From an uncultured Candidatus Poseidoniales archaeon (lineage in GTDB: Archaea; Thermoplasmatota; Poseidoniia; Poseidoniales; Thalassarchaeaceae): a stretch of 58,437 bases of DNA. This document shows, in pieces, positions 41,011 to 45,076 of the stretch; the first letter of the stretch is position 1, and each line of letters opens with the position of its first letter. The DNA lies in NCBI GenBank assembly GCA_964556195.1, contig CAZKVK010000003.1:8134-66570 (forward strand), given 5' to 3'. The notes under the pieces were generated by a model. That model worked only from the letters and a program-made list of their open reading frames with translations, was not told the origin of the DNA and did no database searches. A program made the translations under genes and the position numbers.

Positions 41011-43629
41011 GTGTCGGATGAACTGGAAATCACTGACCCATCTCCCGATTACACTGTTCTCAAGAGAATTCGCAGTGCACACCGTCGTAGACTGCTAGAT
41101 CGATTGACCGACGGCGGAACAACGGTCAGTATTCTCGCTCGTGATTCGGGATTGAGAATTTCTCACGCTTCGGCTGAGCTTAGAAGGATGAGAAACGATG
41201 GACTAGTAGCCAGTGACCAAGTAGCTGGTGCTCGCGGTGCTCGTCTTCATCTTACACAATCTGGTTGGGAGGCAATCCGTTCAGATGAGTTGGCGAGAGC
41301 TATTCAGGTACTCCCCCTCCCCTCTCCCTCCCACAAATATTGCTTGCTGGCCAGAGATGGGGCAAACATTCTGTTAGGACTTCTTGCCCCAATAGACTCT
41401 CCACTTGTACTAATTCCCGACCGACCTGCGAGAGGCTCTGTGGCCGAAGCCACCTCCACAGGAAGCGAGGGGGTCTCATGGATTTGGGCTGTATTGAGAG
41501 AGAGGTCACCGAGATGGTTTGATCTGACCAATATGGAAATGCTACCTGAACCCCCCTCAAGTCATAATCCTGAAACCATTTCTTCCTACGCCGGAGAAAA
41601 CCAAACTCTTGGAATTGTTAGAGCCCGTTTAGTAGATCCAGATAAGCCGGTGGCATTGGCCCCTGGAATTTGGTTCGAATCTCCAACGCGTCGTCCAGAC
41701 CCTCCTCTACCAGAAGCTAGCCATCATCGAGGAGCATGGACTCTCGGCAATTGCCACAACCAATCGCCGGATATCCGACCAAAGGAGCCTGTATCGGCGG
41801 TAATGGAGGAGAGGTTGCCTAGGAGTATGCTATTGCGAACAGCACGCGCGAATGCACTGGTAATCGCCGATTTAGGAGGATTAGATTCTGGCGGCCAGGA
41901 ATTTCCAATTTCTTGCCTAGACTCTTGGATAATTCGAGCCCATCCTCGATTGACACCATCCGAAAGACGTCGTAGGCTGAATAGCTTGAGAGAACGTCTA
42001 ACCTCTACTCGAAGGGTAAGGACGGAGGAATCAACTTGGAGGCGTTTTAGAAAGGATTGGAAGGAAGCAACCTTCTCTACAGAGGAAAGTGGATTGAGGT
42101 TGTTCGATACACGCGGCTTAGCAACTACTGCAACAACGTCGCTAATCGAATGGGCAGTATCTGAGTTAGATAGGCCACCCTTGGTTCTGGAGATTCCCAA
42201 TTCAATTCCAGATGACGTCCTAAGTGCTGTAATTTCCCATCCGAATTTGAGATTGACACTTTCAACTCAATCCCGCCAACCACTCGAAATTTTTGATGAG
42301 CTTATTGTAGACCCACTAAGGCCCCTACCTTGGCTAAGGCTCCGCACTCTCGGTGGTAGGGATATGCCCGTGCGTTTGGTAGACCCAGTACCCACAGCAC
42401 CAGAAGCCACTGAGGATGATGAGGTAGCACCTTCTCCATGGACAATCTTAGGTCTTGACGATGAAATAATTCCCAGCAACATCGCAGATTCTTCTATGAT
42501 AGGTTCAGCAATTGCTCAATTTCCTGAAGGAAATGAGGATTGGTCGAATATGATGGAGGCGAGTTATCCAATAGCCGCTTGGATAGCATCTCCTCCTAGG
42601 ACACGTTGGCATCGTTGGCAGAGATTACACTCCCGACTTGATTCCGAATGGATAGCTTTGCTGGATTTGGAACATCTCCCACTTGAGAGACTTGCAGAGG
42701 TTGCGGATGAAGCACCTCCAAAAGTATTAGAGATATTTAGCGATAAACTGCGCTTCCTTTTGCATAACGATTCAGAAATAGCCCTTCGAACACGTCCGGC
42801 AACCGATCCAACAAATGCTTCGCCGGGTGCATCTTGGGTCGCAGCCCAACTTCTCAGCAATGCAGCATGGTTACCGCAAGATATGCAAGAGGATCTTATT
42901 CACTGGGCATTGGAGGCCTGGCTGGTTCATCCACCTAGTAATTCTCTAGCAGCACTACAAGCGGTTGACTGGATTTACACAGGGGGGCAAGCCGATGTAG
43001 CTAGTTATGGTCCAGTGTTGCAAGGAATTCTAAGAAGGGCAAATGAATTCCCAATAGACCACGACCTCAAGATTTGGTCTTTGCTTGTTGAAAGAATTCG
43101 TGATACTAAACAACTGCAGATAGAAGGCTTGGAGGCGATTGTAGACACTCTACCATTAGACTGGTGGGCTTTGCTGGCTCCTGAGTTATTGACCAATCTT
43201 CTATCTGAAGAATCCTCTTTCGATTGGTTACTGGATAATCCAATCCCTTGGAGCGCTGCAATTCTACGCCCAAAGGGAGAACCCAGTAGTGCTCCTGGGC
43301 TTAGTGATAGATTTCATCCCGGTTGTAGTCCTGAAATTCGTAATTCCCTCGCTAGACGTCTTAGGTCACGTAGAGAAAGAGGAACCTTGCCAGAAAGCGC
43401 AGCCCCGCTTCTCGACCTAATGGAATCACTGGACACAGTTCTTGAGGGGGGCTCGCCAAGCACCGGTAGGACCCATCCAATGGTAGGTTGGTTGGCCCAA
43501 CCAATAGAGAAATGGCCACCGATTAGCAACGAGGTAGCAATGCAAGGCGATTCACATATTGCAGAGAGGATCATATTGAAAGCTTCAGGCTACCATGAGG
43601 GTTTATCCGGACAGCAAAGCCGATTATGA
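41011..43629 (+). CDS. Large hypothetical protein with N-terminal ArsR/MarR-like wHTH
   Basis: HRRRLLDRLTDG..TVSILARDSGLRISHASAELRRMRNDGLV HTH pattern; remainder helical and unassigned. Confidence 0.75.
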   Translation: MSDELEITDPSPDYTVLKRIRSAHRRRLLDRLTDGGTTVSILARDSGLRISHASAELRRMRNDGLVASDQVAGARGARLHLTQSGWEAIRSDELARAIQVLPLPSPSHKYCLLARDGANILLGLLAPIDSPLVLIPDRPARGSVAEATSTGSEGVSWIWAVLRERSPRWFDLTNMEMLPEPPSSHNPETISSYAGENQTLGIVRARLVDPDKPVALAPGIWFESPTRRPDPPLPEASHHRGAWTLGNCHNQSPDIRPKEPVSAVMEERLPRSMLLRTARANALVIADLGGLDSGGQEFPISCLDSWIIRAHPRLTPSERRRRLNSLRERLTSTRRVRTEESTWRRFRKDWKEATFSTEESGLRLFDTRGLATTATTSLIEWAVSELDRPPLVLEIPNSIPDDVLSAVISHPNLRLTLSTQSRQPLEIFDELIVDPLRPLPWLRLRTLGGRDMPVRLVDPVPTAPEATEDDEVAPSPWTILGLDDEIIPSNIADSSMIGSAIAQFPEGNEDWSNMMEASYPIAAWIASPPRTRWHRWQRLHSRLDSEWIALLDLEHLPLERLAEVADEAPPKVLEIFSDKLRFLLHNDSEIALRTRPATDPTNASPGASWVAAQLLSNAAWLPQDMQEDLIHWALEAWLVHPPSNSLAALQAVDWIYTGGQADVASYGPVLQGILRRANEFPIDHDLKIWSLLVERIRDTKQLQIEGLEAIVDTLPLDWWALLAPELLTNLLSEESSFDWLLDNPIPWSAAILRPKGEPSSAPGLSDRFHPGCSPEIRNSLARRLRSRRERGTLPESAAPLLDLMESLDTVLEGGSPSTGRTHPMVGWLAQPIEKWPPISNEVAMQGDSHIAERIILKASGYHEGLSGQQSRL

Positions 43630-43688
43630 TTGAAATACCGAAAAAACACGAAAAATTGGCAATTTTGGTCGCTTATTGCTAATATTTT

Positions 43689-44024
43689 CAATGCGAGGGG
43701 TTCATCAAGGGACCCCATGACCCATCGATGCCCGACCGGCAACACCGTGCCGACGAAAGCCCCACGCCGGAGTTAGTAGGATGAATCACGGTACCACGGA
43801 ACGGGATTTGCCGTATGTCGAAGACCGACGTGACCCACTGCTGGGGAATGATCGTCGGGGCAAAACATACGGTCGGATTGTGATGGGTCCCCGGACGACC
43901 GAGAACGGAAGAGACCGGAATGACTTACGGGACAACCCCACAGTCCAACAGACGTCCCGGGGTGGGTCAGGTGCCCGAGCATTGCGATGAAGGTCACCGT
44001 TACGCCCCGGGGCACACACTTTTT
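43689..44024 (+). ncRNA. Candidate structured ncRNA (about 320 nt) with a K-turn; family unassigned
   Basis: Intergenic, about 61% GC by my count (200/330 nt over 43691-44020), several helices, AT-rich upstream sequence and a T5 run at 44020-44024; strand inferred. Confidence 0.55.
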
Positions 44025-44062
44025 CCGAAGTTCTCAAGACTTCATACACCGGGTGATTAACG

Positions 44063-45076
44063 ATGCACTCACTAGGACTGGTTGGCGGTACTTTCGACCG
44101 CTTTCATGCAGGGCATCGGTCCCTGATCGAGCATGGACTCTCCAAATGTCAAAGGATCGAGGTATGGTTAACCAGTGACCGGATAGCACATGCAAAAGAC
44201 CCTCGCATCGAATCATGGTCCGAAAGGTCGCTGAAATTTGTAGAATCTATTGGTGAAGAATCTACCCGGATTTCTATTCATTTACTGGAAGATGAAGATG
44301 GGCCTGCACCTTGGCATGAGGAAGCATCAGCCATTTTATGCACACCAGAGACAGCAACGGGTTGCCAGAGGATTAATCTCGCGCGCGAGAGTAATGGTCT
44401 ACCTCCTCTCGAAATTCTCAAGGTTGAGTATGTAATCGGCCACGATGGCAAGCCAATTTCAAGCTCTAGAATTCGCCAAGGAGAGATTGACATAGATGGC
44501 GAATCATATCTCCCCGAGGATGCTGGTGAAGTCAATCTAATCTTGACAGAAGAGGTAGAAGCGAACCTCAAGGACCCGTTTGGACAATTGTTTACGGGTC
44601 CAGAGGACGATACAAGCGTAGCAATGCGAGCCGTCCTTGAAGAAATATTTGGTAGCCATGGCCCAATCATCGCAGTGGGTGATGTAACGGTCAAAGCCCT
44701 ACAAGATTTGGGAAGTCCCGCAGACATCGCTCTAATCGATGGTAAGACCAAGCGACAAGAGTGGGAAGCGGCTTCGGCAATCGATCTCTCACTTTACGAT
44801 ACAAGACGCACCTGCGAGAATCCTGCAGGTCAATTGAGCTCAGATCTATTCCATGCCTGTGCGGGCGCTTTACAGGTCTGGAATGAGGACGACAAAACTT
44901 GTCTGATTGACGTGGATGGTGAAGAAGACCTAGCCCCTCTAATTCTTCACCCGATGGCACCATTGGGTGCCGTGGTTCTTTATGGTCAGCCTAACCGTGG
45001 AGTTGTACTTCGTTGGACTGGCTTTGATTCTAAGTCACGTTGTAGAGAACTTCTCGCAGCAATGGACAGGGCTTGA
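44063..45076 (+). CDS. coaD: Phosphopantetheine adenylyltransferase fused to DUF359 (archaeal GTP-dependent dephospho-CoA kinase)
   Basis: N-terminal GGTFDRFHAGH and ISSSRIR; C-terminal LKDPFG, AVGDVT, IDGKTKR, NPAG, VDGEEDL and YGQPNRG. Confidence 0.88.
   Translation: MHSLGLVGGTFDRFHAGHRSLIEHGLSKCQRIEVWLTSDRIAHAKDPRIESWSERSLKFVESIGEESTRISIHLLEDEDGPAPWHEEASAILCTPETATGCQRINLARESNGLPPLEILKVEYVIGHDGKPISSSRIRQGEIDIDGESYLPEDAGEVNLILTEEVEANLKDPFGQLFTGPEDDTSVAMRAVLEEIFGSHGPIIAVGDVTVKALQDLGSPADIALIDGKTKRQEWEAASAIDLSLYDTRRTCENPAGQLSSDLFHACAGALQVWNEDDKTCLIDVDGEEDLAPLILHPMAPLGAVVLYGQPNRGVVLRWTGFDSKSRCRELLAAMDRA

Follow-up and report, generated by a model that had tools for sequence, protein, structure and literature searches.

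A four-hairpin RNA of a Marine Group II archaeon, very probably a box H/ACA guide RNA with four predicted targets in 23S rRNA

The question raised by the locus studied here is what kind of RNA is encoded in a GC-rich segment that lies directly upstream of a gene with PPAT and DUF359 domains. The locus is situated in a stretch of 58,437 nucleotides (nt), further called the window (contig CAZKVK010000003.1 of assembly GCA_964556195.1, positions 8,134 to 66,570 of the forward strand). The window belongs to a metagenome-assembled genome (MAG) of approximately 1.5 Mb, from an uncultured archaeon of the order Poseidoniales, family Thalassarchaeaceae. An earlier reading of positions 43689-44024, made from the letters alone (the sequence-only reading), left four options: a divergent RNase P RNA, a guide RNA, a new class of non-coding RNA (ncRNA), or a switch-like leader for coenzyme A (CoA) biosynthesis. 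The guide RNA, of the box H/ACA type, is the option that survived our analysis, and the other three were given up.

We conclude with high confidence that the structured RNA at approximately 43730-44019 is an independently transcribed box H/ACA guide small RNA (sRNA) of a Marine Group II (MGII) archaeon. We are equally confident that in Poseidoniales it is the counterpart of Afu4/Pf7/Pab40 (HgcG in Rfam), an RNA of three motifs, with an additional fourth hairpin at the 5' end. It belongs to a known class of RNA, not to a new one, and has no bearing on the regulation of CoA synthesis. What is unusual is the layout of four hairpins, two of which (H1 and H2) have no ACA box. Its predicted function is to guide the formation of pseudouridine at four positions of 23S rRNA, all in the catalytic core.

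MGII archaea are uncultured and are among the most abundant planktonic archaea. Their ncRNAs are essentially unannotated, and the sRNA gene described here fills a gap left empty by standard Rfam annotation. We found nothing relevant in the literature on H/ACA sRNAs in MGII or Poseidoniales.

Conservation and covariation of the four hairpins

At Rfam gathering thresholds, only two tRNAs were detected in the whole window. A permissive scan of 43550-44150 identified RF00064 (HgcG/Pab40) at 43811-44012 on the plus strand (28.4 bits, E 4.8e-6). The alignment spans model positions 58-268 of 276 and is colinear over three motifs, represented at the locus by hairpins H2, H3 and H4. Further, we compared 24 genomes of the same genus and observed a sharply bounded conserved block, 85-100% identical, between divergent flanks. 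Searches with nhmmer recovered the RNA upstream of the PPAT-DUF359 gene also in other Thalassarchaeaceae and in Poseidoniaceae. We built two covariance models, R1 for H3 and H4 and R2 for H1 and H2. Of 151 Poseidoniales genomes searched with R1, 116, belonging to 20 of 22 genera, contained a single copy, and R1 also found copies in the sister order of the class. The models could be used for annotating the whole class.

Each hairpin consists of a lower stem, a pocket (internal loop), an upper stem and a K-turn or K-loop. The strands of the pocket are the guides. The transcript and its hairpins are given below.

43730..44019, plus strand: predicted primary transcript of the four-hairpin H/ACA sRNA, approximately 290 nt, based on the conserved block, with the start taken from promoter spacing and the end from a T-run.
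43731..43805, plus strand: H1, present in MGII and not in Marine Group III (MGIII); helices 1-4 of alignment A5 covary. Lower stem CCCG-A-CCG / CGG-AA-CGGG; 5' guide GCAAC (43739-43743), 3' guide ACCA (43793-43796); upper stem ACCGUG/CACGGU, then C.U, C.A and tandem G.A (43752-53 with 43783-84); 3' linker AUUUG, no ANA box.
43811..43872, plus strand: H2, equivalent of Pab40 motif 1, aligned to HgcG model positions 58-125. Lower stem CCGUAUGU/ACAUACGG; 5' guide UCGAAG (43818-43823), 3' guide GCAAA (43860-43864); upper stem A.G, then CCGACG/CGUCGG, then U.U; K-turn with GA 43832-33, C stem CCC/GGG, bulge AAU 43847-49 and GA 43850-51; then a 2-nt linker UC, no ANA box.
43875..43950, plus strand (hairpin 43875-43946): H3, equivalent of Afu4/Pab40 motif 2, with an ACA box; helices 1-3 of alignment A4 covary. 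Lower stem GGAUUGUG/CACAGUCC; 5' guide AUGGGU (43883-43888), 3' guide ACAACCC (43932-43938); upper stem irregular; K-turn with GA 43897-98, C stem CCGA/CCGG, bulge AAU 43919-21 and GA 43922-23; ACA box 43948-43950.
43955..44016, plus strand (hairpin 43955-44012): H4, equivalent of Pab40 motif 3, with an ACA box, aligned to HgcG positions ~200-268; helices 4-6 of alignment A4 covary. Lower stem UCCCGGGGU/GCCCCGGGG; 5' guide GGGUCA (43964-43969), 3' guide GUUAC (43999-44003); upper stem GGUG-CC / GG-U-CACC, then C.A; K-loop with GA 43977-78, GC-AUU-GC, bulge GAU and GA 43989-90; then C, ACA box 44014-44016, 15 nt from the upper stem, and T5.

The sequence-only reading had proposed a check for covariation among homologues, and this check turned out in favour of the structure. 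We prepared structural alignments of 34 diverse copies for H3 and H4 (A4) and of 33 for H1 and H2 (A5). In these, 92.7% and 94.1% of the paired cells could pair, against 30-53% when the partners were slid by 1-3 columns; the alignments were fitted to the models, which inflates pairing somewhat, and the gap to the slid controls is still very large. Double-sided changes were present in 27 of 34 and 28 of 31 pairs, that is in 55 of the 65 modelled pairs, and none of 500 shuffles matched the observed covariation values. In H2 they affected all eight pairs of the lower stem and five of the six of the upper stem. Thus the helix CCGTATGT/ACATACGG (43811-43872) around CCGACG/CGTCGG, together with its K-turn U-GA-CCC...GGG-AAU-GA-U, was recognized correctly from the letters alone and covaries across genera.

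The unpaired parts behaved differently from the stems. In a plain MAFFT alignment, the invariant columns were exactly the pocket strands, the GA/UGA motifs of the K-turns and two ACA boxes. Tandem GA/GA with a 3-nt bulge occurs in each hairpin and is invariant across the order, as are GCAAC, GA, UGA and ACC of H1. By direct count, the pocket and the second G.A pair are 10 layers apart in H1, H2 and H3; in H4 there are 9 layers plus a bulged U. Crystal structures and productive motifs of Pyrococcus have shown that a length of approximately 10 layers is critical (PMC4652768). The ANA box of archaeal H/ACA motifs lies 14-16 nt from the upper stem, and 14-15 nt in productive folds (PMC2377435). 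The upper stems and the ACA distances of H3 and H4 are close to these published rules, and both ACA boxes are kept across the order. The sequence-only reading had missed them, stating that no correctly placed ACA box could be found.

The apical parts of the hairpins are plastic. In Thalassarchaeaceae, the apex of H1 (43754-43779) is enlarged by an insertion of approximately 20 nt, which follows a CGAAAG element; in family f2 (L025) this element makes up a simple K-loop. In the genus of L125 (locus 200-363), an insertion of approximately 30 nt is located in the apical loop of H2.

At the level of composition, the GC island reported earlier was visible, with a GC content of 0.595 at 43700-43999 versus 0.42-0.52 in the flanks. 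The plus strand folded better than its shuffles (z = -2.6, 0/100); for the minus strand this was not the case (z = -0.25). A minimum free energy fold of the whole region produced long-range structure that disagreed with the covarying structure, and we therefore did not use it. Other elements proposed from the letters did not hold. The 3' half of the helix GGGGTTC/GGACCCC (43697-43716) varies without compensation, and the helix overlaps the promoter box upstream of the predicted RNA start. The strands of CGGGAC/GTCCCG (43928/43954) come from separate hairpins, one from H3 and the other from H4, both of which covary. The closing stem CAATGC/GCATTG (43689/43979) would join non-conserved upstream DNA to the K-loop of H4, and TGACCCA at 43718 sits in a variable spacer between the promoter and the RNA start.

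Predicted targets in 23S rRNA

By analogy with characterised archaeal H/ACA ribonucleoproteins (RNPs), L7Ae would bind the K-turn or K-loop of every hairpin and Cbf5-Nop10 would bind the lower stem and the pocket. The two pocket strands would pair with 23S rRNA on both sides of an unpaired U-N, and Cbf5 would then isomerise the target U to pseudouridine. We identified a gene for Cbf5 (C7:27777-28742) with DKCLD, TruB_N, TruB_C_2 and PUA domains, and a gene for Nop10 (C12:24441-24662). From the sequence data we infer transcription of the sRNA, its binding of proteins and its part in pseudouridine formation.

The MAG of the window contains no rRNA genes; the targets were scanned in 16S and 23S rRNA of two genomes of the same genus. 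For each hairpin, 300 shuffled guides were used as a control. The E. coli numbering around A2503 and in helix 69 (U1915) is one that we take to be correct. The predicted targets, with the target U in brackets and positions given for a closed genome, are as follows.

H1: 23S (A)GGU[U]U GUUGC, 8 bp, closed genome 2608, E. coli U2606.
H2: 23S UUGC[U]A CUUCGA, 10/10 bp, closed genome 2498, E. coli U2496.
H3: 23S GGGUUGU[U]C GCCCAU in the A-loop, 13 bp, closed genome 2557, E. coli U2555.
H4: 23S GUAAC[U]A UGACCC in helix 69, 11/11 bp, closed genome 1925, E. coli U1915.

For H2, H3 and H4, no shuffled guide was as good as the real one (0/300 for each hairpin). The match of H1 was marginal, as 3 of 300 shuffled guides scored as well. 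The complementarity between H3 and the A-loop reaches 9+8 nt when the strands of the lower stem are counted. All four target sequences were invariant in the Poseidoniales 23S pieces that covered them; the H4 target was covered by 12 fetched pieces, and the H2 target was invariant in all fetched pieces. We found no better targets in the tRNAs, RNase P RNA or SRP RNA of this genome. In the closed genome of the same genus, the 16S (~1,250 kb) and 23S (~869 kb) genes are unlinked and lie approximately 380 kb apart.

We compared these positions with the sites of Pyrococcus abyssi. Pab40 motif 1 guides modification of P. abyssi 23S position 2588, and motif 3 of position 2016 (Muller et al. 2008, PMC2377435). 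For Afu4 motif 2, the equivalent of P. abyssi 2647 was proposed earlier (PMC2377435). The spacing of our predicted targets, 2498-2557-2608 (59 and 51 nt), equals the spacing of P. abyssi 2588-2647-2698. Pab35 covers the RluE, RluC and RluB positions (PMC2377435), so the offset between P. abyssi and E. coli numbering is 92, and the three sites correspond to E. coli 2496, 2555 and 2606. Because of the identical spacing and this offset, we regard the predicted targets as equivalent to those of P. abyssi.

For motif 2 of Afu4/Pf7, Muller et al. favour the equivalent of P. abyssi 2678, which is E. coli 2586 (PMC2377435). We considered this position as a target of H3. It gave 5+4 bp only, versus 13-17 for the A-loop, and we retain it as a secondary possibility. 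Within the A-loop, U2556 of the closed genome (E. coli U2554) is an alternative target of H3, with a UNN spacer and the canonical distance of 15 nt to the ACA box.

If these predictions are right, pseudouridine would occur at four specific positions of the MGII ribosome, in the peptidyl-transferase region and in helix 69. These sites are common to Pyrococcus and, at least in part, to eukaryotes.

Relatives of the sRNA and the hairpins without an ANA box

The sRNA shares with Afu4/Pf7/Pab40 (RF00064) of Archaeoglobus and Thermococcales a colinear series of three H/ACA motifs, all of which carry a K-turn or a K-loop. The counterpart of motif 1 in the alignment is H2, whose predicted target is equivalent to P. 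abyssi 2588, the verified site of this motif in Pab40. H3 is aligned with motif 2, and the A-loop position predicted as its target corresponds to P. abyssi 2647, the equivalent of the site that Afu4 motif 2 was proposed to guide. For H4, aligned with motif 3, the predicted target in helix 69 falls in the region of the motif 3 site of Pab40 (2016). Therefore H2, H3 and H4 appear to be motifs 1, 2 and 3 by order and alignment, and H2 and H4 also by target. The ACA boxes after motifs 2 and 3 are shared as well. Other features differ. H1 has no counterpart in the Rfam HgcG model, and the ANA box that follows motif 1 in both Pab40 and MGIII has been lost after H2 of MGII.

The copies in the sister order, which is probably MGIII, carry identical guides (UCGAAGG/GCAAA, UGGGU/ACAACCC and GGGUCA/GUUAC), and their hairpins follow in the same order. 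They differ in having three hairpins only, each followed by ACA or AAA at the canonical 15-16 nt. Against HgcG they score 36-50 bits, below the Rfam threshold, and they are presumably unannotated. The genomes that contain them are 1.0-1.4 Mb in size. R2 found no H1 in the sister order. A strict H1 pattern gave only chance matches without stem complementarity in ten MGIII genomes and recovered H1 in two MGII controls. Since the sister order has three canonical hairpins and no H1, the MGII form looks derived, with H1 gained and the canonical ANA box after H2 lost. The pair of orders, one with three canonical motifs and the other with four, two of them lacking ANA, is a natural experiment on the dependence of H/ACA RNPs on the ANA box.

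Other relatives are more distant. The H/ACA-like sRNAs of Pyrobaculum (sR203-sR210) are likewise atypical as guide hairpins; they have a K-turn and an upper stem of conserved length, and 14% of these motifs lack any ANA or NCA box (Bernick et al. 2012, reviewed in PMC4652768). In Pyrobaculum it is the lower stem that is lost; in H1 and H2 of MGII this stem is complete and covaries, only the ANA box is missing, and both hairpins are part of a multi-hairpin RNA. The predicted site of H1 (P. abyssi 2698, E. coli 2606) adjoins site 2697 of Pab35 motif 2 of P. abyssi, and in eukaryotes, where small nucleolar RNAs (snoRNAs) act on the peptidyl-transferase region, the corresponding position is frequently pseudouridylated (PMC2377435). 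No sequence homology of H1 to Pab35 motif 2 or to the eukaryotic snoRNAs was detected; H1 differs from both in its short pairing (8 bp) and in having no ANA box.

Several results weigh against the sRNA being an HgcG-type guide RNA with four working motifs. The match to RF00064, at 28.4 bits, does not reach the gathering threshold of 77 bits; we regard the locus as a remote homologue or functional counterpart of the family, not as a curated member. No ANA box was found at 14-16 nt after H1 or H2 in any Thalassarchaeaceae, nor after H1 in any lineage. The 3' guide of H1 pairs with its proposed target over only 3 bp. The ACA box of H3 lies 16 nt from the upper stem if U2555 is the target, one more than the rule of 14-15 nt allows, and 15 nt if the target is U2554. 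In six other genera of Thalassarchaeaceae, the guides of H3 differ by a correlated pair of substitutions (AUGGGU has become (U)UAGGU, and ACAACC has become ACUACC), which mismatch the A-loop; the A-loop is unchanged in those of the six that have 23S data. These variant guides either tolerate two mismatches or have acquired a different target, and we found no new target for them in the available 23S pieces. Finally, a six-frame search for Gar1 (PF04410) gave no match in four MGII genomes, two of them closed. The same search missed one of four archaeal control genomes, hence absence of Gar1 is not established by it; MGII may lack Gar1 altogether or have one that has diverged beyond detection.

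One explanation of the layout, which we consider rather unlikely, is that only H3 and H4 are active guides. H1 and H2 would then have no productive Cbf5 and would be an L7Ae-bound scaffold, rRNA-binding chaperones or decaying relics. The missing ANA boxes speak for it, as Cbf5 is reported to require this box for binding (PMC2377435). In Poseidoniaceae (MGIIa) there is a (U)AAAC after H2, only 11-12 nt from the upper stem. The short match of H1 to its target agrees with this explanation as well. It has more difficulty with the guide nucleotides of H1 and H2, which are invariant across the order while the stems covary freely, and which therefore argue for selection on pairing to the target. Nor does it account easily for the 10-bp match of H2 to a site at which modification by the homologous Pab40 motif 1 is known from experiment, and the Pyrobaculum motifs mentioned above provide a precedent for guides without any ANA or NCA box.

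The other explanation is that all four motifs are active and that Cbf5 is loaded on H1 and H2 without an ANA box. We put it forward tentatively, as a possibility that falls short of being probable. In the literature consulted, archaeal H/ACA RNAs have one to three motifs. On H1 and H2, Cbf5 would perhaps be positioned by the K-turn through an L7Ae-Nop10 contact, or by the neighbouring hairpin, which is conceivable because the linker after H2 is only 2 nt long in the genus. The RNP on such a four-motif RNA might also be one without a recognisable Gar1.

Transcription signals, neighbouring genes and the remaining alternatives

The start of the RNA near 43730 follows from the spacing of a promoter box, and its end from a T-run. 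The signals around the RNA are as follows.

43694..43708, plus strand: putative sRNA promoter, CGAGGGG (resembling a transcription factor B recognition element, BRE) followed by TTCATCAA (TATA-like box, 43701-43708), ending 21 nt before H1.
44020..44024, plus strand: T5 run, probable archaeal oligo-T terminator of the sRNA, assigned by sequence.
44031..44065, plus strand: separate promoter box TTCTCAAG at 44031-44038, of the same type as in the sRNA and tRNA genes, and the ATG (44063) of the PPAT-DUF359 gene.

All Poseidoniales lineages have a box CGAnGnnTT(C/G)AWWW at one fixed distance from H1, in DNA that otherwise diverges. A TT(C/G)AWRW box is also located approximately 22-30 nt upstream of the tRNA genes and the SRP RNA gene of this genome. 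The box upstream of the sRNA is therefore a candidate promoter. The T5 end, already noticed in the sequence-only reading, is confirmed at 44020-44024 and probably acts as a terminator; most lineages have T-rich sequence after the last ACA. The box of the PPAT-DUF359 gene ends 24 nt before the ATG, and for this reason the mRNA is probably leaderless. The occurrence of a lineage-typical box approximately 21-30 nt before tRNA genes, SRP RNA, the sRNA and the PPAT-DUF359 ATG suggests a TATA box of the TTSAWWW type, and its positions suggest many leaderless mRNAs in MGII.

These signals bear on the proposal that the RNA is a cis-regulatory leader or riboswitch for the PPAT-DUF359 gene of CoA synthesis. 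The arrangement as such invites it, since throughout Poseidoniales the RNA directly precedes this gene and is encoded on the same strand. We nevertheless consider it very improbable. The RNA ends with ACA and T5 and has its own promoter box, and the gene has a separate one (as judged from sequence motifs). Every conserved unpaired nucleotide is accounted for as an rRNA guide or as part of a K-turn, and the homologous Pab40 family acts as a guide in trans.

The chance that the locus represents a new class of ncRNA unrelated to guide RNAs, with coincidental complementarity to rRNA, appears just as slight. The sub-threshold Rfam score and the two hairpins without an ANA box could be cited for it. 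It would have to explain three independent perfect or near-perfect matches, each better than all 300 shuffles, at rRNA sites that are functionally central and are known pseudouridine positions elsewhere. It would also have to explain the colinear alignment to HgcG and the canonical three-hairpin form of the sister order, with ANA after each hairpin. The sequence-only reading had itself named a strong hit to a known Rfam family as the finding that would take away the novelty, and the HgcG/Pab40 match (E 4.8e-6) therefore removes the new class by that measure.

Least credible of all is a known large ncRNA, such as a strongly diverged RNase P or SRP RNA, which the size, GC richness and K-turns had suggested: RNase P RNA (232 bits) and SRP RNA (135 bits) are found elsewhere in the same genome, and Rfam gave no match to these two at the locus even at E up to 10.

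Open reading frames (ORFs) of 69-87 aa in the region were rejected as protein-coding on the basis of a 1-nt indel within the genus and of the RNA-type covariation.

The downstream gene (44063-45076, plus strand), called coaD in the sequence-only reading, encodes a fusion protein of 337 aa with CTP_transf_like (PPAT) and DUF359 domains (Pfam). We take DUF359 to be the family of archaeal GTP-dependent dephospho-CoA kinases; the fusion would therefore be bifunctional and catalyse the two final steps of CoA synthesis. It is common to Poseidoniales, and remoter relatives match mainly over the DUF359 half. The upstream ORF (41011-43629, plus strand) encodes 872 aa with no Pfam-A match at E <= 0.001, and it is kept directly upstream of the sRNA gene within the genus.

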